From an uncultured Verrucomicrobiae bacterium (GTDB taxonomy: Bacteria; Verrucomicrobiota; Verrucomicrobiia; Chthoniobacterales; JAATET01), in contig CAVRCI010000002.1 in the NCBI GenBank assembly GCA_963719495.1, positions 1 to 64,000 of the forward strand: 64,000 bases of DNA. Reading direction: 5' to 3'. Made by a program: the position numbers and the translations under genes. The notes beneath the pieces are model-generated. The model saw only the letters and a program-made list of their open reading frames with translations. It made no database searches and was not told the origin of the DNA. Positions within the stretch are counted from its first letter, which is position 1. Every line of letters begins with the position of its first letter. Below, piece by piece: positions 6,946 to 64,000 of the stretch.

Positions 6946-6992
6946 TTTCCGCCGACGCTCCTGCGGACTGGGCGCGGGAATGTTCGCGGGGA

Positions 6993-8413: not shown

Positions 8414-8433
8414 GGTCGTGTGGAATTGCACCC

Positions 8434-8738
8434 ATGGACGGTCCGGATTTTCAGAACATGACCCGGCGCGAGATCGAGGATTACCTGATCGAGCGGAGTT
8501 TGGTGGACGCGTCGTTTCGCGACGGTTGATCCGGGAGCCGCGCGCGGCGTTGACCGAGTTCGGGCTGCCGCTGGGCGAGGATGTCGTGGTGAACGTGCAC
8601 GTCGAGGAGCCGGGGAGTTTCTCCATCGTGCTGCCGCGGGTGCTGTGGAAGGGCGGCGAGCTGAGTCCCGAGGAATCGAGTGGGGTGGCCGGCGGAGTGA
8701 CGGCTCCGGTGGAGCAGTTTTTTCGCGGCTACGTGTGA
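8434..8738 (+). CDS. NHLP (nitrile-hydratase-like leader) RiPP precursor, one frameshift near 8520
   Basis: TRREIEDYLIERSLVDASFR/RLIREPRAAL..VNVHVEEPGSFSIVLP..ELSPEESSGVAGG; core VTAPVEQFFRGYV. Confidence 0.8.
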
Positions 8739-10330: not shown

Positions 10331-10336
10331 TAACCG

Positions 10337-11590: not shown

Positions 11591-11602
11591 ACGAACGGTC
11601 TC

Positions 11603-29199: not shown

Positions 29200-29233
29200 C
29201 TAGGGGTTGGCTGCAGCGCCTTGTTCGGTCGTA

Positions 29234-31292: not shown

Positions 31293-31436
31293 ACACAAAG
31301 ATTGGGCAAGCTGGTGTGGATTGCAAGGACGAAATGGCCCAACGTCAAGCTCAGCCACCCTGAGCGGGCAATCAAGCCAACCCTGAGGTGAGCTGCCAGT
31401 AGCGGGACCGAGCAACCCCAGCCAGCGAAGCGGCTA

Positions 31437-32650: not shown

Positions 32651-32673
32651 TAGGGGTTGGCTGCAGCGCCTTG

Positions 32674-33476: not shown

Positions 33477-34785
33477 GGCTCTTCTGGGTTTACAGTGGGA
33501 AAGTGAAGAGGGTTTGAACGGAGGTGGTGGATGCGGGTAGGAAGGAGGGCGATGAAGGATACAGAGTTTTACACGCAGATCCTGGGATTGAAGAGTCCAT
33601 GGGCGGTTGAAGAGGTGGACTTGGCCGTGAGCGAGAAGCGGGTGGTGGTCCGGCTCGGATATGAGCCGGGGACGTTGTGGGCCAGTGAGGATGGGGAGCA
33701 TCGACTTCCGTGCCACGACCATGTCGAACGCTTCTGGAAGCACATGGATACGTGCGGGTTCGAGACGTTGCTGGCGGCGCGAGTGCCGCGGCTGCGGCTA
33801 CCGGATGGGCGGGTGGAAAGCGTGCCGGTGCCGTGGGCGGGGAAGGGCAGCCGCTTTACGCTGCTCTACGAGCGTTTTGCCATCGAAGTGATCCGAGCGT
33901 GCTCGACGGTGAGTGCGGCGGCACGACTGCTGGGACTGAGCTGGGATCAAGTTCACGGGATCATGCGACGGGCCGTCGAGCGGGGGCTTGAGCGTCGCGA
34001 TCTGAGTGGATTGCGCTACGCCGGACTCGATGAAAAGAGCTTCGGCGGTGGGCAGAGCTACATTTCGCTCATGACTGATCTGGAAGGCAGCCGGGTGCTG
34101 GAAGTCACTGACGGCAACGACAAGCAGAGCGCGGCAGTCCTTTGGCAATGCCTGCCCGAGGATGTCACCGCGGACTTGAAAGCCGTGGCCGCCGACATGA
34201 GCGGGCATTTTGGTGCCAGCGTCGCAGACTACGCCCCGCAGGCTGATCTGGTCCACGACCGCTACCACATCAGCGCCCATCTCAACAAAGCGGTGAGCCA
34301 GGTCGTGCGCGCCGAAAACAAACGCCTGCAAGCCATGGGAGACGAACGCCTCAAAGGCACCCAGCGCCTCTTCGGCTACAACCCCGATCATCTCAGAGAG
34401 GAGGATGTTGCTCGCTTTTCTCAACTGCGTGACTCCGATCTCAAGAGCGCTCGCGCCTGGGCCATCAAGGAAAACCTCCGCCGCTTCTGGAACTTCCGCT
34501 ACGAGGCCAATGCCCGCAAGTTCTTCGCGGCTTGGTATGGCTGGGCTCGCCGCTCCCAGCTTGAACCCATCAAGAAGGTGGCCAAAACCCTCAAAAACCA
34601 CTTTGAGAACATCATCACCTTCCTGCGCCATCGCATCACCAACGCGGCTACCGAAGCTCTCAATTCACGAATCCAATCCCTCAAGTCCGCCGCCCGTGGG
34701 TTCCGTTCCTTCCTCAACTACCGAACCAGAATCCTCTTCTTCCTCGGTAAGCTCGATCTTTTCCCACTGTAATCCCAAAAGAGCC
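33477..34785 (+). mobile_element. ISL3-family IS (1309 bp), copy 1
   Basis: IR GGCTCTTCTGGGTTTACAGTGGGAAA; TSD GCTGAGAT. Confidence 0.95.
33531..34772 (+). CDS. ISL3 transposase
   Basis: GLDEKSF, ADMS, HDRYHI, TNAATEALNSRIQ. Confidence 0.93.
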   Translation: MRVGRRAMKDTEFYTQILGLKSPWAVEEVDLAVSEKRVVVRLGYEPGTLWASEDGEHRLPCHDHVERFWKHMDTCGFETLLAARVPRLRLPDGRVESVPVPWAGKGSRFTLLYERFAIEVIRACSTVSAAARLLGLSWDQVHGIMRRAVERGLERRDLSGLRYAGLDEKSFGGGQSYISLMTDLEGSRVLEVTDGNDKQSAAVLWQCLPEDVTADLKAVAADMSGHFGASVADYAPQADLVHDRYHISAHLNKAVSQVVRAENKRLQAMGDERLKGTQRLFGYNPDHLREEDVARFSQLRDSDLKSARAWAIKENLRRFWNFRYEANARKFFAAWYGWARRSQLEPIKKVAKTLKNHFENIITFLRHRITNAATEALNSRIQSLKSAARGFRSFLNYRTRILFFLGKLDLFPL

Positions 34786-37745: not shown

Positions 37746-38013
37746 GTGACGGGTCGCAGCGGAAGTGGCAATCAATAGCGTCCGGCAGGAACACGATACG
37801 GAAGTCGGGAAGAGCGCGATTTGCTGTAGGAGGTCCGAGTCACTGAGGGCATGCACATATCTCCTCGTGATGGCGAAAGCGTGGCCGAAAATGACAGACA
37901 AACGAGATTACCAGGAAAGCAGAGGGATGCGGAACGATTAGGAGATGATGAGAACGATACTCGGACGAATAAAATAGTAAGGTCCTAAACCGGGCGTTCA
38001 AATCAATATATTA
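37746..38013 (-). repeat. Cassette family C (268 bp), GGTCGCC/GACGACC core
   Basis: Homologous to 53064-53331 and split copy 46624-46665 + 55394-55635. Confidence 0.88.
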
Positions 38014-42577: not shown

Positions 42578-43445
42578 GTCTAACGTCAAGCTCAGCCACC
42601 CTGAACGGGAGTTCGGATTTGACTGGTGATCATCTGCCCGTGGCGGGTGGCGCAACCCGGCCGCGAAGCGGCTAAGGGTTGGCTGCAGCGCCTTGTTCGG
42701 CCAGAAACGCCCAAGCAACGAAGGACTCCGCTATCTCGATGCCAACCCGTCTGTATTGATTGCATAGTTTCTCTATATCCAATTGCAATTGACGCGGAAT
42801 GGGGAAGTGGCTGATGGAGGAAAATGGTCTAGGAATGGAATCGACAGTCGGTAGTAGGAGAGGGGAATGCCGGTCTTGAAGAAGCGGCTCACATCAAAAG
42901 TGATTGGCAGTAACATCCATTGTTGGACATTCGATCAGGTCTTTCATCAACGAATCGACTTGCGAGATTTGAAACCGTAATTATGCGGAAGAATGTTCAC
43001 CCCGGGCTGATCGCTCCATGTTGGTATGAAATCACCGTGCTATTGCAATAGTGTTGATCAGGCAAAAATATTTTTTTTCGCTCCGCGAAAAGAGATGAGG
43101 AGAATGCTGGATGCTGGTTGAAAGTAATAACTGAATTCCCGCACGAACTTCCGAATACTCGAACACCCTGATCTACAGCATATTTTTTTAGATCGCCGTG
43201 CCGAGATGGTGTTGAAAGACAAGTGGCTCAGAATAGTTCATCCGCCGGAGGCTGCATGCCGGACGTCAAGCTCAGCCACCCTGAACGGGAGTCCGAATTT
43301 GTCTGGTGATCTTCTGGAAGTTGAGGGTCCGCGCAACCCCAAGAGCGAAGCGGCTAGGGGTTGGCTGCAGCGCTTTGTTAGCCTGTATTTTTACCTTAGA
43401 CAATTTAAGAGATTCTGAAAAAAGCGAGGGAATACTGTGTTGTGA

Positions 43446-45195
43446 GGGTGCAGGACAAAAATCTCTGAAAAAGCATTTGAGCGAGGTATTTTTACTGCCA
43501 AAGTATATGCGTTTACATATACGTTTGATTGATGAACCCAAATACCGCACCTCGTGCCATCCTTGATCAAATCGCGGCCATCGACCGCATGGAGCGAGGA
43601 AAGCTCTCGGTGATCCGTCAAGGCCAGAGCGGATCTTACTTCAATCTCCAGCGTAGGGAGGGTGGGCGAAACGTGACCGAATACGTCCCGGCCGATCAGG
43701 TGGCCCAAGCCCAGGAGAACATTGATGCCCATCATCGCTTCCAGTCTCTTGTCGGCGAGTATGCGGACTTGATCACCGCGCAGAGCAGGCAGGATCGCAA
43801 GGCCGGGGCTAAAAAAAAACGCCCGACCCAAACATCTGCCTCGCCCAGGAAGCGGAAATCCAAGACCTGATCGCCGCGTTCCGCAGCAAAGAGCCAGCCG
43901 GAACTGCCGTCGCCGAGTTGGAAGTCCTCGTGCGCACAGCCATCTTCAAACCAGCCAACGAACTGGTGGCCATGCTCCTGCAGCAAGCCGCCGAGCGCAT
44001 TGACGCGGCCTACCTCCCCAAGCCCGGCGAACAAGCCAAGGGGCGCGAGGTTCTCATGGTCCAGGGCATGTTCGGCTCCTTCGCGCTGCTGCGCCAATAC
44101 TACTACCATCCCGGGAAAAAATGCGGCCACTTCCCGGCCGATTCGGCCCTCGGTCTGGAAGGGGCCTACACCCCCGCCCTGGCCCGGCTCATCTGCTTGG
44201 AGGGAGCGGATGAAAGCAGCTTCCAGCAGGCTTGCTTCCACCTCGCGGAAACTGGCGGCATCTCCGTCTCCGAGCGCCAGATCCAGCGTGTGGTTGGCCG
44301 CACGGGCGAGTGCGCCGTGGCGTGGCAAAAACGAGAATCGGCCCCCGGCCCCTGCGAGGCCAGGATCCTCTACGTCAGCGCGGACGCCACCGGAGTGCCC
44401 ATGCGCCGGGAAGAGCTCGCTGGCCGCAAAGGCAAAGCCCCCGACGCAAAAGCCAAAACCCGCATGGCCACGCTCGGTTGCGTCTTCACCCAGACCAAAG
44501 AAGATGACCAAGGTCGCCCCCTGCGCGACCACGACTCCACCACCTACCTCTCCGCCTTCCAGAGCCCCTCGGACTTTGGAATCAGCCTGCGTCGCGAGGC
44601 CATTCGGCGCGGCTTGTTCTCGGCCCCGGAAACCGTCCTGCTCATCGACGGAGCCCCCGGCTTGGAAAAGCTCGGGCACGATTACTTTCCGGATGCCGTC
44701 CAAATCGTGGACTTCTACCACGCCATGGAACACCTCCAGACCCTGATCGAAACCCTCTGGGGCAAAGCGGAGCAGGCCCGCAACAAGCGCCGCAGACATC
44801 ACTGGAAAAAACTCCTCGCTCACGACGGGGTCGAGCGCATCATCAAGCAGGCGCGCCAGGAAGCCCTCCTTCGCGGCAATGTGGCACAGGTGGAAACCAC
44901 TTTGGGCTACTTCGTGAACAACATCCCGCGCATGCAATACGGAACCTTCCGGGCCAGAAAATACTTCATCGGCTCCGGAGTCGTCGAAGCCGGCTGCCGC
45001 TCACTCATCGGAAAGCGATGCAAGCAATCGGGCATGTTCTGGGGCGAGCCTGGCGCGGACAAAGTCCTCGCCTTCCGCTGCATCCATGCCAGCCGCAGAA
45101 CGGACTCGTTCTGGAAATACCACCTCAACTCACGCGCCGCTGAGAACGACACGCTCCCCCTCGCCGCATGATTTGAAGAATTTTGTCCTGCACCC
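43446..45195 (+). mobile_element. ISKra4-family IS (1750 bp)
   Basis: IR GGGTGCAGGACAAAA / TTTTGTCCTGCACCC; 9-bp TSD GTGTTGTGA. Confidence 0.88.
43529..45171 (+). CDS. ISKra4 transposase (orfA 43529..43870 + orfB; A9 slippery run 43811-43819)
   Basis: ADATGVPMR, IDGA, DFYHA.EHL, IGSGVVEAGC..RCKQSGMFW. Confidence 0.85.
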
Positions 45196-45707
45196 GTGTT
45201 GTGATAGCGGTCATGGCAGGGCTTGCAAACAGCAATCAACTCAAATAAGATTTCTTCACCTACGTTTTCGTATGTTTTGTGATGTGCCTGAGTAGCGCGA
45301 CGGCTTCTGCATCCCTCGCATATTCCTTGGGAGCGTTGAATCACAAGTTCGCGTTTCGCAAGCCACTCGTCACTTTGGAGATACTCCTCATACTGAGCGT
45401 TCCAGGCTTCACGTAGCTTTCCGCGTTCATCCTCCTGAATCTGCTCAAATCGTTCTCGGAACAGAGCCCAAACTCTATCAGCGATTTCTAAATCAAAATC
45501 GGGAATTACTAAGGGATCGGCAATCTTGCTCTTCGGAATTCGATTCCCAGTCTTTGATCCGCATTTTAGACATTGATTCCAATACCATTTTTGACCGCTT
45601 TCCGTAACCTTGACGCGAATTTCCGTTAATTGATGTTCGCACAGACTCGGGCAGTCGGCCCGTCGCCTGAGTGACTCATAGTCAAGATCGAGTCTCGTGA
45701 ACTTCAT
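44907..45707 (-). CDS. HNH/zinc-finger endonuclease-like cassette protein, C-terminus replaced by ISKra4
   Basis: YEEYLQSDEW..CEGC..HHKTY..CKPCHDRYH; native tail (HNT)VFPRFFQNLLNCLR lies at 43391-43445. Confidence 0.75.
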   Translation of the reverse strand: MKFTRLDLDYESLRRRADCPSLCEHQLTEIRVKVTESGQKWYWNQCLKCGSKTGNRIPKSKIADPLVIPDFDLEIADRVWALFRERFEQIQEDERGKLREAWNAQYEEYLQSDEWLAKRELVIQRSQGICEGCRSRRATQAHHKTYENVGEEILFELIAVCKPCHDRYHNTGAGQNSSNHAARGSVSFSAARELRWYFQNESVLRLAWMQRKARTLSAPGSPQNMPDCLHRFPMSERQPASTTPEPMKYFLARKVPYCMRGMLFTK

Positions 45708-46445: not shown

Positions 46446-46623
46446 CCCGCAAGATTACCGAATGTGGTCTTGCGGGCGAGCATTGTTTTCATGGGGCTAA
46501 CGTCAAGCTCAGCCACCCCGAACGGGGATCCGAACTCTGAAGAAGGATGTGAACTGCCAGCCGGAAGTCAGTGCAACAGCGGCCGGTGATCGGCTAGGGG
46601 TTGGCTGCAGCGCCCTGGTCGTC

Positions 46624-46665
46624 GTGACGGGTCGCGGCGGAAGTGGCAATTAATAGCGTCCGGCA
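46624..46665 (-). repeat. Cassette family C, 3' part (split by IS and inversion)
   Basis: Continues at 55635-55394 via shared 16-mer. Confidence 0.85.
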
Positions 46666-47433
46666 TGTCGGCGACTGTTCAAAAGCGGAATTCTCGCCTG
46701 TTCAAAAGCGAACAGCGATTTTAGAGGCTGAAGTGGCCTAGAATGGGGGGCCAGACGGTTTTGGGAGGGTGTTCGACGACCCAGAAACGGCTTCCGGGAT
46801 GGTGGACGATGGTGACGCTCTTGCGCTGGGTGTTGGAGATCTCGTAGTTGGAGCCATCGAAGTCGATGGTGTGGTCATTGTTCACCCGGCGGGAGCAGCG
46901 GATTGAGAGGTGTAAGTCTAGGAGCGCGGAAGGCGGGATGGGGCGCATGCGCCCGCTGTCGCCAAGCGACTGCGCTTCCCACAGATGGAGCGGGACCTTG
47001 CCGGTGGAGCGATTGACGGTACGGTTCTGCCTGGCAATCTCCATCTGAAGAATTTCGTCGGCCTGGGGCCAAGTTTTGGCGCTGGCATGGGCGAGTAGTG
47101 TGACGAGCCGTCTCTGGAAAGTCCCGAAACGGCGCTCGATCTTACCCTTAGCTTGTGGGGTCGGTGCCACTAAGTGAGCGACGCCGAGTCCGCGGAGGGC
47201 GCGTTGGAATTCACTCTTAGGATCGCAGTGATCGCCGCTGGAACTTGGCCCGAAGAGGCTGAGGCCATCAGTGTAAACGATCTGCGGCAGGCCCCAGGTC
47301 TCGAAGGATTCGCGGAAATGTCCGAAATGGTTCCAAGTGGTATCGGATTCCACGAAGCGACCTGCTAGATTCAGGCCCGAATGGTCGTCGACGGTGAGCA
47401 GTAAAGTCTGTTTAGCGGCGGCGGGCCACCATT

Positions 47434-48742
47434 GGCTCTTCTGGGATTACAGTGGGAAAAGATCGAGCCTACCGAGGAAGAAGAGGATTCTGGTTCGGTA
47501 GTTGAGGAAGGAACGGAACCCACGGGCGGCGGACTTGAGGGATTGGATTCGTGAATTGAGAGCTTCGGTAGCCGCGTTGGTGATGCGATGGCGCAGGAAG
47601 GTGATGATGTTCTCAAAGTGGTTTTTGAGGGTTTTGGCCACCTTCTTGATGGGTTCAAGCTGGGAGCGGCGAGCCCAGCCATACCAAGCCGCGAAGAACT
47701 TGCGGGCATTGGCCTCGTAGCGGAAGTTCCAGAAGCGGCGGAGGTTTTCCTTGATGGCCCAGGCGCGAGCGCTCTTGAGATCGGAGTCACGCAGTTGAGA
47801 AAAGCGAGCAACATCCTCCTCTCTGAGATGATCGGGGTTGTAGCCGAAGAGGCGCTGGGTGCCTTTGAGGCGTTCGTCTCCCATGGCTTGCAGGCGTTTG
47901 TTTTCGGCGCGCACGACCTGGCTCACCGCTTTGTTGAGATGGGCGCTGATGTGGTAGCGGTCGTGGACCAGATCAGCCTGCGGGGCGTAGTCTGCGACGC
48001 TGGCACCAAAATGCCCGCTCATGTCGGCGGCCACGGCTTTCAAGTCCGCGGTGACATCCTCGGGCAGGCATTGCCAAAGGACTGCCGCGCTCTGCTTGTC
48101 GTTGCCGTCAGTGACTTCCAGCACCCGGCTGCCTTCCAGATCAGTCATGAGCGAAATGTAGCTCTGCCCACCGCCGAAGCTCTTTTCATCGAGTCCGGCG
48201 TAGCGCAATCCACTCAGATCGCGACGCTCAAGCCCCCGCTCGACGGCCCGTCGCATGATCCCGTGAACTTGATCCCAGCTCAGTCCCAGCAGTCGTGCCG
48301 CCGCACTCACCGTCGAGCACGCTCGGATCACTTCGATGGCAAAACGCTCGTAGAGCAGCGTAAAGCGGCTGCCCTTCCCCGCCCACGGCACCGGCACGCT
48401 TTCCACCCGCCCATCCGGTAGCCGCAGCCGCGGCACTCGCGCCGCCAGCAACGTCTCGAACCCGCACGTATCCATGTGCTTCCAGAAGCGTTCGACATGG
48501 TCGTGGCACGGAAGTCGATGCTCCCCATCCTCACTGGCCCACAACGTCCCCGGCTCATATCCGAGCCGGACCACCACCCGCTTCTCGCTCACGGCCAAGT
48601 CCACCTCTTCAACCGCCCATGGACTCTTCAATCCCAGGATCTGCGTGTAAAACTCTGTATCCTTCATCGCCCTCCTTCCTACCCGCATCCACCACCTCCG
48701 TTCAAACCCTCTTCACTTTCCCACTGTAAACCCAGAAGAGCC
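47434..48742 (-). mobile_element. ISL3-family IS copy 2
   Basis: Same IRs as copy 1; TSD CCACCATT. Confidence 0.95.
47447..48688 (-). CDS. ISL3 transposase
   Basis: 413 aa, identical to copy 1 except K to R near the C-terminus. Confidence 0.93.
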   Translation of the reverse strand: MRVGRRAMKDTEFYTQILGLKSPWAVEEVDLAVSEKRVVVRLGYEPGTLWASEDGEHRLPCHDHVERFWKHMDTCGFETLLAARVPRLRLPDGRVESVPVPWAGKGSRFTLLYERFAIEVIRACSTVSAAARLLGLSWDQVHGIMRRAVERGLERRDLSGLRYAGLDEKSFGGGQSYISLMTDLEGSRVLEVTDGNDKQSAAVLWQCLPEDVTADLKAVAADMSGHFGASVADYAPQADLVHDRYHISAHLNKAVSQVVRAENKRLQAMGDERLKGTQRLFGYNPDHLREEDVARFSQLRDSDLKSARAWAIKENLRRFWNFRYEANARKFFAAWYGWARRSQLEPIKKVAKTLKNHFENIITFLRHRITNAATEALNSRIQSLKSAARGFRSFLNYRTRILFFLGRLDLFPL

Positions 48743-49469
48743 CCACCATTGGTGGATCGAACTGTCGTGCTGCCAAAGTTCGCCGATGCGAGCGCGACGG
48801 AAGCGCCGATAAACGCGAGGCTTGCGGGTCGGCGAGGGCACCAGATGGGCGTAGCGCGCTTTGACGTGGGTCTCGACGACCGAGCGCGCCCGAACGAATC
48901 CGCAGAGTCGCTCAAGTTCGTCGGCGACTAACTGGTAATTGGGTGGGTTCTGAAGCGGCAGAAACTCTTGGAGAAAGCGTTCAACTTCGGGCGGCCAGTC
49001 GGCGCGACGAGCGCCCCCGCTGGCAGCCGGGGCGTAGGAATTACGATTTGCGAGGTAGGCCGTGCGGAGTTCATAGAGCCTGGTTTTGCCGATGCCTAAC
49101 TGGCTTGCGGCATTGCTGGCATCGAGAAGTCCTGCATTGAAATCTGCAAGTGTGCGACGGACAAAATCTGGCGGGAGACGGTGGGTAATCTGCTTCTTTT
49201 CAATCCGGGATAATCGACCAGGCGAGCGCGCAAGCCAGCGCGTTCCACAAACGCTTCACCCCAACGGCTGGTATCCTTGGGGCACTGGGGCCGGGGAGCA
49301 GGCGCGCACGCGGGAAGCGCCTCTCCGTCAGCCTCCGCTACGCTCCGGCCTCCTCCGAGGCGCTTCCCGCGTCTCCCAATACAACGCCCCAAAACCCCCA
49401 ATCCACTTTTGAACAGTCTCTCATTCCGCTTTTGAACAGTCTCCGTTCACTTTTGAACAGGCCCCGACA

Positions 49470-49727
49470 CTTTATGGTGTAGATGATGCTGGAAAAAGCC
49501 ATTTCATTCCATTCGATCAGCCGCAGTTCGAGTCGCACCAACCACTAAGAGTTACACAAGCACAGATCGTCGCCATTCATACGTCGTTTCCCAAATCATA
49601 TTTTCGGAGCTTCAGTAGCTTCTACGTCGCAGTTCCTGTTATCTTGGATGGGAACTTATGGTATATTCCATCGCAAGTAGAGTCGATATCGATGAAAGCC
49701 GAACAAGGCGCTGCAGCCAACCCCTAG
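49470..49727 (+). pseudogene. 3' half of secreted-protein cassette gene whose 5' half is 57123..57390 (-)
   Basis: Open frame LYGVDDAGKSHF..MKAEQGAAANP* continues ..FQGLQLYGVD. Confidence 0.85.
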
Positions 49728-49864
49728 CCGCTTCGCTGGCTGGGGTTGCTCGAACCCTCTACTGGCAGTTCACCTCAGGGTTGGCTTGATTGCCCGCTCA
49801 GGGTGGCTGAGCTTGACGTTAGCCATATTCTACACAATGATAACACACGTATATTACCAACACC

Positions 49865-50332
49865 ATGATCACTAAACTCCTTCTGATCTCAACGATTGCT
49901 CTCGCACTGCTCCAGCCGACACAGGCGCAGGATACCGAGAAAGCATCTTTTAATTTCGTGTATAGAACCGATCGAACTGGCGGAAACTTCCTTACGTTGA
50001 GCGCCCGGCAATCTATTACTGTATCAGGAAAGTTACGCTTTCGCAAATCCCGCGCGGATTCAGGAATCTACAAGTTCGAAGGACGCGTGCTATCGTCCCG
50101 TCTAGATGCAATGGGCAATACTCGATTCCGAGTCATACTTTCGGACGGCAATGGCCTAAAACTTAAGGGAACGGCATGGCAGGAGCTCCGCTTGGTTGGG
50201 TCTGAAGATTTCGTAATTGGAGGAGAGTATTTCAACCTATTTAAAGGCCGAACAAACGAACCGAGACTTTTTAATCAGAGGGCGAAGCGGCTTGATCTTG
50301 AACACAAGGCAGGAACTGTGTTTTTCGATTAG
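49865..50332 (+). CDS. Cassette secreted hypothetical protein
   Basis: Signal peptide ending TQA; ORF fills cassette. Confidence 0.75.
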   Translation: MITKLLLISTIALALLQPTQAQDTEKASFNFVYRTDRTGGNFLTLSARQSITVSGKLRFRKSRADSGIYKFEGRVLSSRLDAMGNTRFRVILSDGNGLKLKGTAWQELRLVGSEDFVIGGEYFNLFKGRTNEPRLFNQRAKRLDLEHKAGTVFFD

Positions 50333-50468
50333 AATCAATGCGGCTAACAAGGCGCTGCAGCCAACCCCTAGCCGCTTCGCTGGCTGGGGTTGCTCGGTCC
50401 CGCTACCGGCAGCTCACCTCAGGGTTGGCTCGGCCACCCGCTCAGGGTGGCTGAGCTTGACGGTCGCC

Positions 50469-50848
50469 TTATACAAAAAATAACGATTTAGTTCGGTTTA
50501 GGAACGCTCGCTTTCGATTCGATCGGGCGACTGAGCCGAGGGAATTCGACTGGATGCCCCTTTCCCCTTCCATCCGCCGACTCCCCTCGTCACAGACGCC
50601 CTCTTCCACCTCTCCGATCTCACTTCGCCGTTCCGGGTCTCGCCGCTCCACCCGCAGAGCCGGGTCGAGCTTGCGCCTCCGCGACTTCGCTGATTGATCT
50701 GTTTCGATTACATTTTCACCATCACGAGGAAATATTGCCACGACCAGTCTGGCTCGAGCCTCGGTCCATGTGGTTGAATTGTTCCTGACTTCCACGGTTT
50801 CGCCCCTGTCGGATGCTACGGTCGGCCATCTTGTCCACGAGCCGTCCC
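50469..50848 (+). repeat. Diverged family-C-like gene-less cassette (380 bp)
   Basis: GGTCGCC/GACGACC core and TTTTCACCATCACGAGGAAATAT block. Confidence 0.7.
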
Positions 50849-51018
50849 GACGACCAGAGCGCTGCAGCCAACCCCTAGCCGTCACCCGGCGCTCTTGTTC
50901 TGACTTCCGTCCAGTCCATCACATCAAGCTCAGAATTTGGTCCCCCGTTCGGGGTGGCTGAGCTTGGCGTTAGGCGATACAGAATTGCGCGAAGCTGAAT
51001 ATCCGATACACTCCTTTC

Positions 51019-51237
51019 ATGATCGCAATAGATGAAATACAGCAAATGCCTCTGCACGAAAAACTTGTGGTTATGGAAGCAATATGGTCAAACATATCCC
51101 AAGTTGAGGCTTCAATCGACGTTCCCCAATGGCACAAGGACTTGCTTGACGAACGGGAAGCGTTGATTTCGGGAGGCAAGGCACAGTTCATTGATTGGGA
51201 CGACGCCAAAAAACAGATTGAGGCCGCTACTCGATGA
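51019..51237 (+). CDS. Addiction-module antitoxin
   Basis: EKLVVMEAIW..PQWHKDLLDER..FIDWDDAK. Confidence 0.85.
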   Translation: MIAIDEIQQMPLHEKLVVMEAIWSNISQVEASIDVPQWHKDLLDEREALISGGKAQFIDWDDAKKQIEAATR

Positions 51238-51533
51238 AGCTGCAGATTCTCGACCTCGCGCGCAACGATCTCATTGATGGCTATCACTATTACGAAGACA
51301 AAGAAGATGGACTTGGGTCTTACTTCCTGACAAACCTCTATTCAGACATCGAGACACTCAAGGTATTCGGTGGGATTCATTCAAAGCCTCATAAGGATTT
51401 TCATCGAGCACTCTCTAAGCGCTTCCCTTTTGCAATCTATTATACGGTGGCCGACAGCACAGTTCAGATCAGGGCCGTGATTGATTGTAGACGAAAGCCA
51501 ACTTGGATTCGAAAGCACTTGAGGAACGCCTAA
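51234..51533 (+). CDS. parE: ParE/RelE family toxin
   Basis: ARNDL..YE..GLGSYF..RFPFAIYY..DCRRKP.W. Confidence 0.88.
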   Translation: MKLQILDLARNDLIDGYHYYEDKEDGLGSYFLTNLYSDIETLKVFGGIHSKPHKDFHRALSKRFPFAIYYTVADSTVQIRAVIDCRRKPTWIRKHLRNA

Positions 51534-51654
51534 CAAGGCGCTGCAGCCAACCCCTAGCCGCTTCGCTGGCTGGGGTTGCTCGAACCCGCAAGTGGCAGCT
51601 CACCTCAGGGTTGGCTCGATTGCTAGCTCAGGGTGGCTGAGCTTGACGTTCGCC

Positions 51655-51990
51655 TGATTTATTGGAGTTAAGATCAAGGGAAAGTTCAGAGTTGCTCGAT
51701 TCCCTTTGGCATACGATTGAGCACGATTCTGGTTTTTCATTGATCACTCCCGATTCGGCCCCAAGAATTATTCGCCTGCCATGCACGCTTGGGGCGCTCA
51801 CGCGGCCTGAGTAGATCCATCCAGAATCCGTTCCGCCCTTCTCGTGTCACGAGCAATATATTTATAATGCGAAGTCAATCTGGACCACAGAAGCCTCTTC
51901 TACTGAATGCTCTAACGAAGCCGCTTGCTGGATTTGACCATCGTCGGCCTGTCGGACGCTCTGGTCCTCCATTGTGCAGTCACCGTTTCC
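51655..51990 (+). repeat. Gene-less cassette family A
   Basis: One of 8 copies. Confidence 0.9.
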
Positions 51991-52126
51991 GACGAACAAG
52001 GCGCTGCAGCCAACCCCTAGCCGACCAGAGGCAAGCCTTGGCCGACCGATCCCCTTCCGGCAAACACCTTGCCTAGACGTTCGTTGCCCCGCTCAGGGTG
52101 GCTGAGCTTGACGTTAGCTGATTACA

Positions 52127-52942
52127 ATGCCTCAGGTCGTAAGCCAAAATGGAGTTCGGTTAAATTCCGACTACAAGCTCGGAGAGATTCAGGGCATCTG
52201 CGGCCTGATCCTCGAATCGTGGGTTCCCTCGGACCGCAACGCGGATTACAATCGTGCACTTGACACCCTGATCGAAAGACTTGCAATTTATGGACTCGAG
52301 GAGATTTCAGTGAATGTGATATCCCGGGATTTAATGAGCAAGTTTCCTGTTTTTTCGGATCGATCGCTCAAGGTTCGGGATTCGACTGCCATTTCGATCT
52401 CGACGGTCGACATTAAGGATCAAAGACTTCGGATCGGACGATTGCAGGCTGAAATGAAGGTCGATCCGGATGTTCGAGGCGGAAACAGGACTAAACGCAT
52501 ATTACTTTACAACCACGCGATTGACGCCACATCTTGGGAACGCATTGCAGAAGGCTTTTCCCCTGATTCCAAACAAGATCGGATTGATCGTCGCGTAGAA
52601 TATGGTGATGCACTTCCCACTGGTAATGTATCTCCCACTCGCACCCGTCACAGCACAGTGACTGTCGACCGAGATCCTTTTGTTCGCTCTTGGATTCTCC
52701 ATAATGCGAGCGGTGTTTGCGAACTCTGTGGTTTTACAGCGCCGTTCTTTAATGATGCTGGCCTCCCATTCCTCGAGGTTCACCACGTTTTTCCGCTCGC
52801 CGCCGGCGGACCTGACACCGTCGACAACGCTGTCGCGTTGTGCCCGAACTGCCATAGAGAATTACATCACGGAGTTGATCGGACTGCCAAGACCGCAGAC
52901 CTTATTCGATTGATTGGTCGGTTGGATTCAATACACAGCTAA
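52127..52942 (+). CDS. HNH endonuclease (McrA-like C-terminus)
   Basis: RDPFVR..CELC..PFLEVHHV..GGPDTVDNAVALCPNCHRELH. Confidence 0.9.
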   Translation: MPQVVSQNGVRLNSDYKLGEIQGICGLILESWVPSDRNADYNRALDTLIERLAIYGLEEISVNVISRDLMSKFPVFSDRSLKVRDSTAISISTVDIKDQRLRIGRLQAEMKVDPDVRGGNRTKRILLYNHAIDATSWERIAEGFSPDSKQDRIDRRVEYGDALPTGNVSPTRTRHSTVTVDRDPFVRSWILHNASGVCELCGFTAPFFNDAGLPFLEVHHVFPLAAGGPDTVDNAVALCPNCHRELHHGVDRTAKTADLIRLIGRLDSIHS

Positions 52943-53063
52943 CAAGGCGCTGCAGCCAACCCCTAGCCGCTTCGCTGGCTGGGGTTGCTCGGACCCGCCT
53001 CCGGCAGCTCACCTAGGGGTTGGCTCAGTCGCCCGCTCAGGGTGGCTGAGCTTGACGGTCGCC

Positions 53064-53331
53064 TAATATATCTGTTTTGAACGCCCGGTTTACGACCTTC
53101 AGATCTTATTCGTCCGAGTATCGTTCTCATCATCTCCTCATCGTTCCGCGTCCCTCTGCTTTGCTGGTAATCTCGTTTGTCTGTCTTTTTTGCCACGCTT
53201 TCGCCATCACGAGGAGATATGTGCATGCCATCAGTGACTCGGACCTCTTGCAGCAAATCACCCCCTTCCCAACTTCCTTATCTTGTTCCTGCCGGACGCT
53301 ATCGATTGCCACTTCCGCTGCGACCCGTCCC
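53064..53331 (+). repeat. Cassette family C (268 bp)
   Basis: GGTCGCC/GACGACC core. Confidence 0.88.
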
Positions 53332-53467
53332 GACGACCAGGGCGCTGCAGCCAACCCCTAGCCGATCACCGGCCGCTGTTGCACTGACTTCCGGGTGGCA
53401 GTTTACATCCTTCTTCAGAGTTCGGATCCCCGTTCGGGGTGGCTGAGCTTGGCGTTCGGCAAATGAT

Positions 53468-53986
53468 ATGAAACGACCATTCGTTACAAATGCCACTTAT
53501 CTGGAAAGACCTTTTTTCGTGCGCCAAGTCGAGAGTCATCTCTTTTTTGGTCCGGTATCTCGTTTTTTCGATTTGGCGTATCTCGTTTTCGCCGTTGCAG
53601 CCGGAAGTCTAGTCTATTTCCTTTTTCTCACTGAGAAATCAATCTTTCAGTATATTTCAAGTTTAGCGGACAAACTCGTGTTTCTAGCTGTCCCATTTGT
53701 CATGCTCGGTTTGACGCGTCGCCAACAAGCAGTTCTAGGTTGGATATCAGTAAAAGTTTCGTTTGCGATCGCCGCGTTAATCATGGCTACGGTCGGCAGT
53801 ATAACGAGCTTTTCCAAAAATCAAACTGACGCACTACCCAATCTGTTTCTTGGATTGATTTGGATCCCATGGATAGAGTTTATCCCTTCCGTCACATCGT
53901 CACAGTGGCTTGTTACTAGTAGTCGGTTTATCCTTTCACTCCCATGCGTCTATTTCGGGATTCAAAGCGGCTATTGGCATTGGTAA
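53468..53986 (+). CDS. Cassette multi-pass membrane protein
   Basis: About 5 hydrophobic segments; ORF fills cassette. Confidence 0.7.
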   Translation: MKRPFVTNATYLERPFFVRQVESHLFFGPVSRFFDLAYLVFAVAAGSLVYFLFLTEKSIFQYISSLADKLVFLAVPFVMLGLTRRQQAVLGWISVKVSFAIAALIMATVGSITSFSKNQTDALPNLFLGLIWIPWIEFIPSVTSSQWLVTSSRFILSLPCVYFGIQSGYWHW

Positions 53987-54165
53987 ATACATGCCGAACA
54001 GGGCGCTGCAGCCAACCCCTAGCCGCTTCGCTGGCTGGGGTTGCTCGAACCCGCTATCGGCAGTTCACCTCAGGGTTGGCCCGGTTGCCCGTTCAGGGTG
54101 GCTGAGCTTGACGTTCGGTCATAAAGAGTTCGATTCGCACGGTTTGTCTTGCTGTAATCCAGTAA

Positions 54166-54726
54166 ATGACCGCGAAACGCTTCTATGACTGGCAGACCGC
54201 CGGTGGCACTGACGATGTGATGCGTCTCACATCCTGCCTTGAGCGGGCAGATATTGCTTGGTGCGCAATCGGAGGTGTCGCCGTGAATCACTGGGCCGAC
54301 GAGCCAATGGTGACTCAGGATGTTGATTTTGTTGTAGCGACTGAATCAATCCAGTCGACGGTCTACGCGCTTGAGAGGGAAGGATTCAGGAGCAAGACTT
54401 TTGAGTGGTCGATCAATTTTACCGGATCATCTCGGGTGAGCATTCAGCTCAGCACGGAGGACTTCTATCGAGAGTTCCCCGCACGCGCGGTCCCAGCAGA
54501 TGTTCACGGAATCCTTCTCAGAGTAGCATCGTTGGCTGATACTCTCTCCGGCAAGATCAAGGCTTGGTCGGCGCCGGAACGCAGACAAAGCAAGCGAATC
54601 AAAGATCTCGGGGATATCTCAAGACTCGTTGAGGCACACCCTCACTTGTGGAAGATGCTTCCAACAAAGCTGCAGGCACAAATTGATAATCCTGAGACCG
54701 AACAAGGCGCTGCAGCCAACCCCTAG
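54166..54726 (+). CDS. Nucleotidyltransferase-family protein (AbiEii-like fold)
   Basis: AIGGVAVN..TQDVDFVV..K..R..K..KDLGDI. Confidence 0.75.
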   Translation: MTAKRFYDWQTAGGTDDVMRLTSCLERADIAWCAIGGVAVNHWADEPMVTQDVDFVVATESIQSTVYALEREGFRSKTFEWSINFTGSSRVSIQLSTEDFYREFPARAVPADVHGILLRVASLADTLSGKIKAWSAPERRQSKRIKDLGDISRLVEAHPHLWKMLPTKLQAQIDNPETEQGAAANP

Positions 54727-54831
54727 CCGCTTCGCTGGCTGGGATTGCTCGGTCCCGCTACCGGCAGCTCACCTCAAGGTTGGCTTGGTCGCCCGCTCAG
54801 GGTGGCTGAGCTTGACGTTCGGTCATATACT

Positions 54832-55296
54832 ATGAATACCAGCAAACGAGCATTCTTGTGCGCAGCACTTGCATCAATGGCGCTTTCAATTTCTGCAGAG
54901 GACAACGCCCACGATTATGTCAAGCCAAACTACGAAGTGGAATTGGCTAGGAGAGAGTATCAAACTAAACTGTATGCCGCATTTCGCAGCGATTCGATCA
55001 TATCAAAAGAACTTCCTGAAGATTTCCGGTTAAGTGGTTTAGCATACGGAGGCCTTGAAATCCAATTTTACAGGACCACATCTACGGAAGCACAACAGAA
55101 AATTATTGAGATCATACAAGCTACGATAAGCGACAGTCTTTTCCTCAATGCACGGATTGAATTCTATGAAGACCGCATCACAACCTCTAGTCCTGGACGC
55201 AATGGCAGACAATTCGAATCGCTATTGAGGACGATTTCAATCGGGGAACCATACGAACACAATTCGACCGAACAAGGCGCTGCAGCCAACCCCTAG
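54832..55296 (+). CDS. Cassette secreted hypothetical protein
   Basis: Signal peptide; stop inside attC. Confidence 0.7.
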   Translation: MNTSKRAFLCAALASMALSISAEDNAHDYVKPNYEVELARREYQTKLYAAFRSDSIISKELPEDFRLSGLAYGGLEIQFYRTTSTEAQQKIIEIIQATISDSLFLNARIEFYEDRITTSSPGRNGRQFESLLRTISIGEPYEHNSTEQGAAANP

Positions 55297-55393
55297 CCGC
55301 TTCGCTGGCTGGGGTTGATCGGTCCCGCTACTGGCAGCTCACCTCAAGGTTGGCTTGGTTGCCCGCTCAGGGTGGCTGAGCTTGACGGTCGCC

Positions 55394-55635
55394 TAATATA
55401 TAGATTTGAACGCCCGGTTTAGGAACATCACGGTTGGATTCTCCAAGTATTGTTCTCCTTATCTCTGCTCCGTTCGGCGCTACGCTGCTCTACTGGTGAC
55501 CTCGTTTGTCTGTCTTCTTCAGCCACGTTTTCACCATCACGAGGAGATATTTGAACGCCTCTAGTGATTCGGACCTCACTCAGCAAATCACCCTCTTCCC
55601 AACTTCCGTATCTTGTTCCTGCCGGACGCTATTAA
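55394..55635 (+). repeat. Cassette family C, 5' part
   Basis: Homologous to 53064-53305; ends at IS. Confidence 0.85.
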
Positions 55636-57122
55636 TGTCGGGGCCTGTTCAAAAGTGAACGGAGACTGTTCAAAAGCGGAATGAGAGACTGTTCAAAAGT
55701 GGATTGGGGGTTTTGGGGCGTTGTATTGGGAGACGCGGGAAACGCCTCGGAGGAGGCCGGAGCGTAGCGGAGGCTGACGGAGAGGCGCTTCCCGCGTGCG
55801 CGCCTGCTCCCCGGCCCCAGTGCCCCAAGGATACCAGCCGTTGGGGTGAAGCGTTTGTGGAACGCGCTGGCTTGCGCGCTCGCCTGGTCGATTATCCCGG
55901 ATTGAAAAGAAGCAGATTACCCACCGTCTCCCGCCAGATTTTGTCCGTCGCACACTTGCAGATTTCAATGCAGGACTTCTCGATGCCAGCAATGCCGCAA
56001 GCCAGTTAGGCATCGGCAAAACCAGGCTCTATGAACTCCGCACGGCCTACCTCGCAAATCGTAATTCCTACGCCCCGGCTGCCAGCGGGGGCGCTCGTCG
56101 CGCCGACTGGCCGCCCGAAGTTGAACGCTTTCTCCAAGAGTTTCTGCCGCTTCAGAACCCACCCAATTACCAGTTAGTCGCCGACGAACTTGAGCGACTC
56201 TGCGGATTCGTTCGGGCGCGCTCGGTCGTCGAGACCCACGTCAAAGCGCGCTACGCCCATCTGGTGCCCTCGCCGACCCGCAAGCCTCGCGTTTATCGGC
56301 GCTTCCGTCGCGCTCGCATCGGCGAACTTTGGCAGCACGACAGTTCGATCCACCAATGGTGGCCCGCCGCCGCTAAACAGACTTTACTGCTCACCGTCGA
56401 CGACCATTCGGGCCTGAATCTAGCAGGTCGCTTCGTGGAATCCGATACCACTTGGAACCATTTCGGACATTTCCGCGAATCCTTCGAGACCTGGGGCCTG
56501 CCGCAGATCGTTTACACTGATGGCCTCAGCCTCTTCGGGCCAAGTTCCAGCGGCGATCACTGCGATCCTAAGAGTGAATTCCAACGCGCCCTCCGCGGAC
56601 TCGGCGTCGCTCACTTAGTGGCACCGACCCCACAAGCTAAGGGTAAGATCGAGCGCCGTTTCGGGACTTTCCAGAGACGGCTCGTCACACTACTCGCCCA
56701 TGCCAGCGCCAAAACTTGGCCCCAGGCCGACGAAATTCTTCAGATGGAGATTGCCAGGCAGAACCGTACCGTCAATCGCTCCACCGGCAAGGTCCCGCTC
56801 CATCTGTGGGAAGCGCAGTCGCTTGGCGACAGCGGGCGCATGCGCCCCATCCCGCCTTCCGCGCTCCTAGACTTACACCTCTCAATCCGCTGCTCCCGCC
56901 GGGTGAACAATGACCACACCATCGACTTCGATGGCTCCAACTACGAGATCTCCAACACCCAGCGCAAGAGCGTCACCATCGTCCACCATCCCGGAAGCCG
57001 TTTCTGGGTCGTCGAACACCCTCCCAAAACCGTCTGGCCCCCCATTCTAGGCCACTTCAGCCTCTAAAATCGCTGTTCGCTTTTGAACAGGCGAGAATTC
57101 CGCTTTTGAACAGTCGCCGACA
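55636..57122 (+). mobile_element. IS1202-family (IS481-related) IS copy 2, intact (1487 bp)
   Basis: TGTCGGGGCC/TGTCGGCGAC ends, 3 left + 2 right CTGTTCAAAAG boxes, 16-bp target duplications. Confidence 0.88.
55901..57067 (+). CDS. IS1202/IS481-type DDE transposase (inferred ATT start)
   Basis: Frame open from 55850; HTH AASQLGIGKTRLYEL; GELWQHDSS, VDDHS, YTD, PQAKGKIERRFGTFQRRL. Confidence 0.8.
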   Translation: MEKKQITHRLPPDFVRRTLADFNAGLLDASNAASQLGIGKTRLYELRTAYLANRNSYAPAASGGARRADWPPEVERFLQEFLPLQNPPNYQLVADELERLCGFVRARSVVETHVKARYAHLVPSPTRKPRVYRRFRRARIGELWQHDSSIHQWWPAAAKQTLLLTVDDHSGLNLAGRFVESDTTWNHFGHFRESFETWGLPQIVYTDGLSLFGPSSSGDHCDPKSEFQRALRGLGVAHLVAPTPQAKGKIERRFGTFQRRLVTLLAHASAKTWPQADEILQMEIARQNRTVNRSTGKVPLHLWEAQSLGDSGRMRPIPPSALLDLHLSIRCSRRVNNDHTIDFDGSNYEISNTQRKSVTIVHHPGSRFWVVEHPPKTVWPPILGHFSL

Positions 57123-57390
57123 CATCTACACCATAAAGTTGTAAACCCTGGAATTTTCTGGTTCGCTTGTCGATGATAGCGCCATCTGGATTCGTGGCCT
57201 TAATGTAGACGGAAACCGAAACTGAATTGAACGTATTTTGATCAATATTCAACAATACTAAAAATGATCCAATTGGTCTTTCCCAATTCAATTCTGCGGG
57301 CGGAGAATCTAAAATGTAAAAGGACGATTCATTGGCGAAAGATATCTGAGTGAAAGTGACAAAGGTGAGTATCGGTAAAAAGAATCGCAT
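57123..57390 (-). pseudogene. 5' half of secreted-protein cassette gene split by IS and inversion
   Basis: Signal peptide MRFFLPILTF..; ends LYGVD at the 16-bp duplication. Confidence 0.85.
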
Positions 57391-61315: not shown

Positions 61316-62123
61316 ACGGGAAGTTCACATGGAGCGCAAGGGCGATTGAGATTTCTGTCGGCGACTGTTCAAAAGCGGAATTCTCGCCTGTTCAAAAGCG
61401 AACAGCGATTTTAGAGGCTGAAGTGGCCTAGAATGGGGGGCCAGACGGTTTTGGGAGGGTGTTCGACGACCCAGAAACGGCTTCCGGGATGGTGGACGAT
61501 GGTGACGCTCTTGCGCTGGGTGTTGGAGATCTCGTAGTTGGAGCCATCGAAGTCGATGGTGTGGTCATTGTTCACCCGGCGGGAGCAGCGGATTGAGAGG
61601 TGTAAGTCTAGGAGCGCGGAAGGCGGGATGGGGCGCATGCGCCCGCTGTCGCCAAGCGACTGCGCTTCCCACAGATGGAGCGGGACCTTGCCGGTGGAGC
61701 GATTGACGGTACGGTTCTGCCTGGCAATCTCCATCTGAAGAATTTCGTCGGCCTGGGGCCAAGTTTTGGCGCTGGCATGGGCGAGTAGTGTGACGAGCCG
61801 TCTCTGGAAAGTCCCGAAACGGCGCTCGATCTTACCCTTAGCTTGTGGGGTCGGTGCCACTAAGTGAGCGACGCCGAGTCCGCGGAGGGCGCGTTGGAAT
61901 TCACTCTTAGGATCGCAGTGATCGCCGCTGGAACTTGGCCCGAAGAGGCTGAGGCCATCAGTGTAAACGATCTGCGGCAGGCCCCAGGTCTCGAAGGATT
62001 CGCGGAAATGTCCGAAATGGTTCCAAGTGGTATCGGATTCCACGAAGCGACCTGCTAGATTCAGGCCCGAATGGTCGTCGACGGTGAGCAGTAAAGTCTG
62101 TTTAGCGGCGGCGGGCCACCATT

Positions 62124-63432
62124 GGCTCTTCTGGGATTACAGTGGGAAAAGATCGAGCCTACCGAGGAAGAAGAGGATTCTGGTTCGGTAGTTGAGGAAG
62201 GAACGGAACCCACGGGCGGCGGACTTGAGGGATTGGATTCGTGAATTGAGAGCTTCGGTAGCCGCGTTGGTGATGCGATGGCGCAGGAAGGTGATGATGT
62301 TCTCAAAGTGGTTTTTGAGGGTTTTGGCCACCTTCTTGATGGGTTCAAGCTGGGAGCGGCGAGCCCAGCCATACCAAGCCGCGAAGAACTTGCGGGCATT
62401 GGCCTCGTAGCGGAAGTTCCAGAAGCGGCGGAGGTTTTCCTTGATGGCCCAGGCGCGAGCGCTCTTGAGATCGGAGTCACGCAGTTGAGAAAAGCGAGCA
62501 ACATCCTCCTCTCTGAGATGATCGGGGTTGTAGCCGAAGAGGCGCTGGGTGCCTTTGAGGCGTTCGTCTCCCATGGCTTGCAGGCGTTTGTTTTCGGCGC
62601 GCACGACCTGGCTCACCGCTTTGTTGAGATGGGCGCTGATGTGGTAGCGGTCGTGGACCAGATCAGCCTGCGGGGCGTAGTCTGCGACGCTGGCACCAAA
62701 ATGCCCGCTCATGTCGGCGGCCACGGCTTTCAAGTCCGCGGTGACATCCTCGGGCAGGCATTGCCAAAGGACTGCCGCGCTCTGCTTGTCGTTGCCGTCA
62801 GTGACTTCCAGCACCCGGCTGCCTTCCAGATCAGTCATGAGCGAAATGTAGCTCTGCCCACCGCCGAAGCTCTTTTCATCGAGTCCGGCGTAGCGCAATC
62901 CACTCAGATCGCGACGCTCAAGCCCCCGCTCGACGGCCCGTCGCATGATCCCGTGAACTTGATCCCAGCTCAGTCCCAGCAGTCGTGCCGCCGCACTCAC
63001 CGTCGAGCACGCTCGGATCACTTCGATGGCAAAACGCTCGTAGAGCAGCGTAAAGCGGCTGCCCTTCCCCGCCCACGGCACCGGCACGCTTTCCACCCGC
63101 CCATCCGGTAGCCGCAGCCGCGGCACTCGCGCCGCCAGCAACGTCTCGAACCCGCACGTATCCATGTGCTTCCAGAAGCGTTCGACATGGTCGTGGCACG
63201 GAAGTCGATGCTCCCCATCCTCACTGGCCCACAACGTCCCCGGCTCATATCCGAGCCGGACCACCACCCGCTTCTCGCTCACGGCCAAGTCCACCTCTTC
63301 AACCGCCCATGGACTCTTCAATCCCAGGATCTGCGTGTAAAACTCTGTATCCTTCATCGCCCTCCTTCCTACCCGCATCCACCACCTCCGTTCAAACCCT
63401 CTTCACTTTCCCACTGTAAACCCAGAAGAGCC
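62124..63432 (-). mobile_element. ISL3-family IS copy 3
   Basis: Same IRs; TSD CCACCATT. Confidence 0.95.
62137..63378 (-). CDS. ISL3 transposase
   Basis: Identical protein to 47447..48688. Confidence 0.93.
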   Translation of the reverse strand: MRVGRRAMKDTEFYTQILGLKSPWAVEEVDLAVSEKRVVVRLGYEPGTLWASEDGEHRLPCHDHVERFWKHMDTCGFETLLAARVPRLRLPDGRVESVPVPWAGKGSRFTLLYERFAIEVIRACSTVSAAARLLGLSWDQVHGIMRRAVERGLERRDLSGLRYAGLDEKSFGGGQSYISLMTDLEGSRVLEVTDGNDKQSAAVLWQCLPEDVTADLKAVAADMSGHFGASVADYAPQADLVHDRYHISAHLNKAVSQVVRAENKRLQAMGDERLKGTQRLFGYNPDHLREEDVARFSQLRDSDLKSARAWAIKENLRRFWNFRYEANARKFFAAWYGWARRSQLEPIKKVAKTLKNHFENIITFLRHRITNAATEALNSRIQSLKSAARGFRSFLNYRTRILFFLGRLDLFPL

Positions 63433-64000
63433 CCACCATTGGTGGATCGAACTGTCGTGCTGCCAAAGTTCGCCGATGCGAGCGCGACGGAAGCGCCGAT
63501 AAACGCGAGGCTTGCGGGTCGGCGAGGGCACCAGATGGGCGTAGCGCGCTTTGACGTGGGTCTCGACGACCGAGCGCGCCCGAACGAATCCGCAGAGTCG
63601 CTCAAGTTCGTCGGCGACTAACTGGTAATTGGGTGGGTTCTGAAGCGGCAGAAACTCTTGGAGAAAGCGTTCAACTTCGGGCGGCCAGTCGGCGCGACGA
63701 GCGCCCCCGCTGGCAGCCGGGGCGTAGGAATTACGATTTGCGAGGTAGGCCGTGCGGAGTTCATAGAGCCTGGTTTTGCCGATGCCTAACTGGCTTGCGG
63801 CATTGCTGGCATCGAGAAGTCCTGCATTGAAATCTGCAAGTGTGCGACGGACAAAATCTGGCGGGAGACGGTGGGTAATCTGCTTCTTTTCAATCCGGGA
63901 TAATCGACCAGGCGAGCGCGCAAGCCAGCGCGTTCCACAAACGCTTCACCCCAACGGCTGGTATCCTTGGGGCACTGGGGCCGGGGAGCAGGCGCGCACG

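Follow-up and report, generated by a model that had tools for sequence, protein, structure and literature searches.

A probable inversion of ten attC sites between insertion sequences in the distal part of a giant chromosomal integron in an uncultured Verrucomicrobiae bacterium

Introduction

In the sedentary chromosomal integrons surveyed by Loot et al., the attC bottom strands lie on the template of the leading strand in 25 of 30 cases; the five lagging cases, from Xanthomonas, hold at most 22 cassettes, and the largest entry marked "Lagging" among rows 19-138 of 138, and a few earlier ones, of Data Set S1 is a cluster of attC sites lacking an integron integrase (CALIN) with 25 attC (PMC5371416). 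Under the current model, large cassette reservoirs owe their existence to a replication direction that prevents attC folding, and toxin-antitoxin cassettes punish the reverse orientation. When the Vibrio cholerae array was inverted, excision rose from <7e-5 to 3e-2 and growth was impaired (PMC13108822). When the lagging orientation, toxic in this species, was engineered, an inverted pair of IS3 insertion sequences (IS) inverted 79 kb within the array, turning 63% of it from lagging to leading with the integrase intact, at very low frequency without selection (PMC11023631). Here we analyze a 64,000-nucleotide stretch (the window; positions 1 to 64,000 of contig CAVRCI010000002.1, assembly GCA_963719495.1) from an uncultured Verrucomicrobiae bacterium, which holds the distal part of a chromosomal integron array and, within it, a block of ten attC sites inverted between two IS copies. 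An earlier note, made from the letters alone, had proposed this block as a possibly reversible switch in cassette expression and mobility.

Judging from the sequence, the inversion, located in the distal part of a giant chromosomal integron, is likely to be real and unprogrammed. In itself it is ordinary, being a known kind of rearrangement and a cleanly recorded natural case of the event seen in V. cholerae laboratory evolution. What is unusual is the host array, which is very large in what appears to be the orientation that erodes arrays elsewhere. Below, G000 is the genome under study (4.54 Mb), C2 is the contig holding the window, and G001 to G005 are relatives of the same genus.

Results

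Swapped target duplications record a probable inversion

The elements that bound the block are as follows (window coordinates).
46650-46665, + strand: target duplication X, outer copy, 16 bp
46666-49469, - strand: IS copy A, IS1202/ISTde1-like, with TGT...ACA ends; transposase interrupted by ISL3
47434-48742, - strand: ISL3 inside copy A, flanked by an 8-bp duplication of its own (NF033550, 282.5 bits, cut-off 180)
47447-48688, - strand: ISL3 transposase inside copy A
49470-49485, + strand: target duplication Y, inner copy, 16 bp
49470-55635, + strand: inverted segment, 6166 bp, with 10 attC, 9 complete cassettes and two junction fragments
55620-55635, - strand: target duplication X, inner copy (reverse complement)
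55636-57122, + strand: IS copy B, 1487 bp, transposase open
55853-57067, + strand: copy B transposase frame, 404 codons, start codon ambiguous
57123-57138, - strand: target duplication Y, outer copy (reverse complement)

All four 16-mers were found where the earlier note had placed them, and their pairing as reverse complements was confirmed. Each of the two sequences, X and Y, occurs just twice in the whole genome, and each 16-mer adjoins one end of a 1487-bp IS copy; a chance match of one 16-mer at a fixed place has a probability of about 2e-10 (4^-16). Copies A and B are mutually inverted, and each bears the other's duplication, while 7 of the 10 IS copies in the genome, including other inverted and close pairs, keep their own. 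The attC motif has 10 matches on the + strand (49707-55373) versus 201 on the - strand in the remainder of the C2 array. Swapped duplications and reversed attC sites together bear out the proposed inversion of ten attC between two inverted IS copies.

The cassettes broken at the two junctions are as follows.
46624-46665, - strand: 3' remnant of a split gene-less 268-bp C cassette, ending at the attC at 46495-46623
49470-49700, + strand: C-terminal 76 aa of a split 160-aa cassette gene
55394-55635, + strand: 5' part of the split C cassette
57139-57390, - strand: N-terminal 84 aa of the split gene

The earlier note held that flipping the segment restores both the C cassette and one continuous open reading frame (ORF). 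On flipping, the left junction does resemble other 268-bp C cassettes (85% identity over 380 to 400 bp), and the two gene halves align end to end on an intact paralogous cassette, C2:122919-123404 (31% and 37% identity), which indicates that the split gene was formerly one. In neither case, however, does the flip by itself suffice: the cassette and the reading frame become continuous only if the IS copies are removed as well. The N terminus of the split gene is hydrophobic and signal-peptide-like by eye, and its N-terminal half was found in none of 300 other genomes of the order.

A second block of this kind lies in G001:C3, where 19 of 148 attC are reversed between inverted ISL3 copies and a flip reunites one of the two 8-bp duplications; none was seen in the fetched arrays of G002 to G005. 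Three observations count against a true inversion in the present locus. The G001 block shows half of the swap, the fragmented contigs of the available runs (three, the best containing 0.36 of the words, in short pieces) gave no junction-spanning piece, and one 24-bp flank, looked for in metagenome contigs by exact matching, gave no matches. Inverted near-identical repeats are a classic cause of misassembly, and an assembler that crossed between A and B would produce an artefact or a minority arrangement. Yet A and B share uninterrupted homology over just 768 and 727 bp, either side of ISL3, the same contig resolves a repeat of 2.8 kb (A and C, see below) as well as a repeat-rich array of 148 kb, and none of the other copies shows a swap. 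We therefore hold misassembly to be quite unlikely.

Two insertions followed by recombination would explain the locus

The most likely course of events begins, as the sequence shows, with the IS inserting twice, 6.2 kb apart and in opposite directions, each insertion duplicating 16 bp of its target, namely a gene-less cassette and the 160-aa gene. RecA-type recombination between the copies would then have flipped the segment and swapped the duplications; a recA gene is present, over its profile cut-off.

The same swapped duplications are expected if one IS attacked a target 6.2 kb away and created the second copy and the inversion in a single intramolecular transposition, after which ISL3 would have entered A and the composite would have been copied to C. 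That A and B differ by a single base apart from ISL3 would suit such sister copies, but all copies in the genome are about 99.5 to 100% alike, so that this identity is uninformative. Seven other copies resemble simple insertions, and the paper on IS1202 attributes missing duplications to intra-replicon recombination (10.1101/2022.12.17.520857). Furthermore, the G001 block is bounded by the unrelated family ISL3, which favors a family-independent route. We consider the one-step scenario unlikely and favor recombination between two earlier insertions.

The insertion sequence resembles the ISTde1 subgroup of IS1202

The ISTde1 subgroup of the IS1202 family makes 15- to 17-bp duplications (10.1101/2022.12.17.520857). 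The present element is similar in its length of about 1.5 kb, its TGT ends, its 16-bp duplications, its best profile, ISNCY_2, and its DDE transposase with an extra DD (10.1101/2022.12.17.520857). It differs in that the ISNCY_2 (NF033594) score of 160.7 bits is below the cut-off of 250 and in the two or three short internal repeats that its ends contain. Lower-scoring profiles are IS481 (65.7 bits) and IS21 (31 bits), and no Pfam match was obtained for the transposase. TGT stands at both ends in 8 of 10 copies, one of the others having TAT and one an aberrant end. In a survey of 66 related loci, 62 of them in Verrucomicrobiota records, a duplication was detectable in 22, and it measured 16 bp in 19. 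The element thus fits the ISTde1 subgroup on sequence features and may be a member of it.

A third copy lies close by.
61356-64000, continuing to C2:64159, - strand: IS copy C with the same nested ISL3, its own 16-bp duplication intact

Over 2645 bp, copy C does not differ from A. The two repeat one IS::ISL3 composite in direct orientation, and a crossover between them would remove 14.7 kb, taking the whole inverted block with it; B and C make up another potentially invertible pair, at present unflipped. The copy with the aberrant end, at C14:208060, lacks the last bases of its right end, and the 19 bp that come next repeat the left flank. Other elements are found in the window's array as well, with IS1182 and IS630 lying within attC sites and ISL3 and ISKra4 within cassettes (27600-29200, 31436-32652, 33477-34785 and 43420-45200).

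The host is a large sedentary integron with an intact integrase

The array and its integrase gene are placed as follows.
27020-64000 of the window, - strand: distal part of the chromosomal integron array (array on C2 about 27-175.5 kb)
C2:175745-177352, + strand: intI, outside the window, divergent from attI

The attI site lies near C2:175490, and the first cassette opens at a GTT core without a preceding attC body, about 255 bp from the intI start. IntI scores 425 bits with TIGR02249 (cut-off 265) and has 535 aa with no internal stop; by eye, it carries the catalytic R-K-H-R-H-Y motifs. There are 207 complete attC sites of R''-L''-L'-R' structure, with all 10 tested pairs in 168, and large arrays occur in 5 of 5 genus relatives. 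With an IntI, an attI, more than 19 attC and presence across relatives, the locus qualifies by its sequence as a sedentary chromosomal integron. Like the Vibrio sedentary integrons, it has intI divergent from attI, a long array of uniform, approximately 127-bp attC, and many toxin-antitoxin and gene-less cassettes (PMC5371416).

Cassette polarity is standard: R'' equals the R' at the cassette's own start at all four variable positions in 145 of 196 cases, versus 24 of 196 for the end R'. The attC body goes with the upstream gene in 15 of the 19 repeated cassette families, most clearly in the largest (29 copies, 0.94 vs 0.68). This architecture fits recombination by IntI on the attC bottom strand. 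Several of the repeated families have identical attC, which suggests ongoing turnover. Gene-less cassette families have 29, 12, 7, 5 and 4 copies, and the 336-bp family, with its own attC type, supplies the first cassette at attI.

Family scans assign a named toxin or antitoxin domain to about 15 cassettes, with some of the matches below cut-off, and add 8 DUF433-type pairs, in a count that covers hand-picked ORFs of the window plus 134 ORFs beyond it and omits repeated gene-less cassettes, 10 intervals of >1.5 kb and ORFs crossing locus borders. The V. cholerae array has 19 toxin-antitoxin cassettes among 179 (PMC11023631).

Elsewhere in the genome, there are a separate cluster of 5 attC at C7:38067-40936 and a short fragment at C4:228866-229446. 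One cassette of the main array, at L212:5101-5604 (C2 about 165 kb), encodes a protein with a SeqA C-terminal domain.

The main array appears to lie in the lagging orientation

Array orientation was read in all genomes from skew and gene direction. Given the standard polarity of the cassettes, the main array has + as its bottom strand. On C2 this strand is G-rich to either side of the array, a trend that continues for 650 kb, and it is also T-rich. We take the G-rich strand to be the leading one from the majority of gene strands, the direction of the rRNA operon, rpoB and S10, and the position of dnaA and parS-like sites. Genes lie on the G-rich strand in 1753 of 2943 scored cases (from a purpose-made gene caller), with a majority on 16 of 16 contigs, as do 31 of 48 tRNA/tmRNA genes; the rRNA operon, rpoB and S10 clusters run with the G-rich strand of their flanks. 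The dnaA gene and two perfect parS-like palindromes are about 210 to 260 kb from the single strong -/+ switch. This evidence suggests that the attC bottom strands of the main array lie on the template of the lagging strand. The table of Loot et al., which uses the same G-over-C rule, lists V. cholerae (+1, G-rich +) as "Leading" and X. campestris (-1) as "Lagging" (PMC5371416), and the array studied here has the X. campestris geometry.

The relatives agree, with attC counts that refer to fetched stretches.
G001: 129 attC plus 19 inverted
G002: 191 attC
G003: 63 attC in an array truncated at a contig end; the stretch lacks intI
G004: 193 and 188 attC on C7; 32 on C5
G005: 97 attC; 82 on another contig

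In all of these arrays, the attC top strand is on the C-rich strand of the flanks, the skew being weak for G005:C16 and G004:C5, so that the usual arrangement, with the bottom strand on the leading template, appears in none of the six genomes. In G004:C7, 16S, rpoB and intI run in the same direction, and the + strand is G-rich at 11 of 11 sampled points. On this contig, C7:1118268-1434675 holds the arrays of 193 and 188 attC, the second without intI in the fetched stretch, and G004:C5:141684-164865 holds a further integron with the 32 attC.

Other observations tell against this assignment. In 6 of 6 genomes, dnaA (C13:403289-404611 in G000) lies on the C-rich strand; in the two for which its distance from the skew switch was mapped, G000 and G003, this is 200 to 260 kb. 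With dnaA on that strand and ~260 kb from the G000 switch, no origin is pinned. A search for a dif site gave nothing convincing, and in 5 of 5 relatives the rpoB locus itself has a skew that is close to zero or leans slightly to C. No bias between the strands is seen among the polymorphisms of repeated cassettes (C>T 299/2077 vs G>A 271/1793, p=0.55). The G002 array ends about 45 kb from a +/- switch, where fork direction is less certain.

A recent flip of the whole integron is disfavored by the third-position skew of intI (+0.66). This skew is positive in 11 of 11 loci of the same integrase family and in 6 of 9 in other families.

The inverted block is probably not a programmed switch

The block comprises attC numbers 176 to 185 of the 207 complete sites, counting from attI, and lies 120 to 126 kb from attI.
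49698-49824, 50342-50468, 50849-50975, 51528-51654 and 51991-52119, + strand: attC 1 to 5 of the block
52937-53063, 53332-53460, 53993-54119, 54697-54823 and 55267-55393, + strand: attC 6 to 10 of the block
51019-51533, + strand: addiction-module cassette, Unstab_antitox and an overlapping 99-aa partner without family match
52127-52942, + strand: HNH endonuclease cassette
54166-54726, + strand: AbiEii-like nucleotidyltransferase cassette

Three complete cassettes in the block are gene-less. By family scans, toxin-antitoxin-type cassettes are not enriched, with 1 of 9 complete cassettes inside the block versus about 14 to 22 of ~195 outside. In the V. cholerae laboratory strain, by comparison, the re-inverted part contained most of the toxin-antitoxin cassettes (PMC11023631).

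The proposed switch in expression is not supported. The end of copy A upstream of its transposase (49469) points towards the block; both IS copies present this same end to it in either state, their transposases being read in the direction away from it, so a crossover within the IS leaves at least 727 bp beside the block unchanged, and the junction cassettes stay broken. A sigma-70 consensus scan gave 6 sites versus 5.4 expected, and none of these reads from an IS into the block. The expression context of the block would thus be essentially unchanged. Vibrio gene-less cassettes can serve as internal promoters (10.1101/2023.11.21.568050), and any such promoters in the three gene-less cassettes here would flip along with the block. 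A programmed invertible switch would have a dedicated invertase and short recombination sites, whereas no invertase or recombinase was found among the 46 window proteins scanned and the block boundaries are full IS copies. As to reversibility, a return flip could occur over 768 or 727 bp, but by generic recombination only, and the V. cholerae analogue is very rare (PMC11023631).

The idea that mobility is altered fares better, in that inversion does change attC orientation relative to replication; the direction of the change had escaped the earlier note. With the main array in the lagging-template orientation, the flip would have moved ten bottom strands from the lagging- to the leading-strand template, towards the stable orientation and away from that of the main array, and excision of the block cassettes is predicted to fall. 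The IS-bearing junctions would now lie between opposed attC and would not be excisable as ordinary single cassettes. A selected or often-reversible switch that alters expression or protects toxin-antitoxin cassettes could draw on this predicted direction towards low excision, on the toxin-antitoxin content of the re-inverted part in V. cholerae and on the occurrence of such blocks in the fetched stretches of 2 of 6 genus genomes. It sits poorly with a block that takes in just 10 of about 211 attC, besides the cassette content and IS ends described above. The switch reading is weak, and we judge it very improbable; the unprogrammed inversion that we prefer was probably near neutral.

Discussion

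The closest parallel is the IS3-IS3 re-inversion in V. cholerae, in which an inverted IS pair likewise turns part of an array from lagging to leading beside an intact integrase (PMC11023631). There, the lagging orientation was engineered and target duplications were absent (PMC11023631), whereas in the present array the lagging orientation appears native, about 5% is flipped, the element is an IS1202-like one and the event has left swapped duplications. Opposite-strand CALIN blocks of 11 and 9 attC also occur in a natural genome, that of V. anguillarum (PMC5371416, Data Set S1, rows 373-374); by these table rows, lagging blocks stand there beside a leading array, opposite to the arrangement found here.

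Unlike in the survey of Loot et al., attC in the apparent lagging orientation stand beside an intact intI in numbers of 201 (G000), 191 (G002) and 193 (G004). This orientation, as deduced from sequence features, contradicts the published trend, and arrays that reach about nine times the lagging maximum on record, in six related genomes, would be a clear counter-example, although, the six being kin, they amount to one lineage and not six independent tests. Reports of such large lagging arrays or of this integrase form were not found in the literature searched, subscription papers being outside its coverage.

A counter-example of this kind would point to another excision brake or to high turnover. 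Tentatively, and as a possibility that we rate below even, the genus may use some other control of excision to maintain integrons of ~190 to 380 attC that combine an intact integrase and many toxin-antitoxin cassettes with the orientation destabilizing the Vibrio array. If so, IS-flipped blocks would be natural internal controls, with both orientations under one integrase in one array. As ten sites face one direction and two hundred face the opposite one, the orientation rule would be measurable within one chromosome.

Low integrase expression would be the simplest account of array survival. With regard to a possible SOS (LexA) control of intI, a LexA-like gene scores under its cut-off, and a Verrucomicrobia LexA motif has no exact match in the genome and none with one mismatch near intI. 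The extra N-terminal DNA-binding domain of IntI is a candidate for excision control. An N-terminal extension of 130 to 253 aa, present in 13 of the 14 integrases aligned from the order, holds a second copy of the SAM-like domain (profile match 95%, E 2e-8). For this duplicated-domain form, one literature search gave just an IntI1 paper.

Two other accounts of survival were set aside. Inactivation of the integrase is contradicted by the 14 aligned integrases, which have no internal stops (single flags in G001 and G004 are terminal codons by coordinates). Poor attC folding is unsupported: by a rough bottom-strand folding probability of our own definition, which differs from the exact one of Loot et al., the median is 0.012, and 60 of 207 sites exceed 0.1.

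Cassettes with non-canonical cores

Some repeated gene-less cassettes have non-canonical cores that match their own R'' (window 37746-38013, 50469-50848 and 53064-53331). GGT/ACC cores pair with their own R'' in 9 listed G000 cassettes. GAT/ATC cores do so in about 28 cassettes in G002, about 25 in G004 and about 13 in G003, with none listed in G001; these sit in the arrays of G002:C4, G003:C1 and G004:C7. Next to the cut site, such cassettes leave the attC of their upstream neighbor mismatched, and they might serve as brakes.

Elsewhere in the window

Outside the array, positions 2844-16290 encode a DUF4135 protein, HlyD and a peptidase C39 ABC transporter pair, and near 5212-7463 they contain three short related repeats. 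By its domains, this cluster is presumably of the lanthipeptide type.

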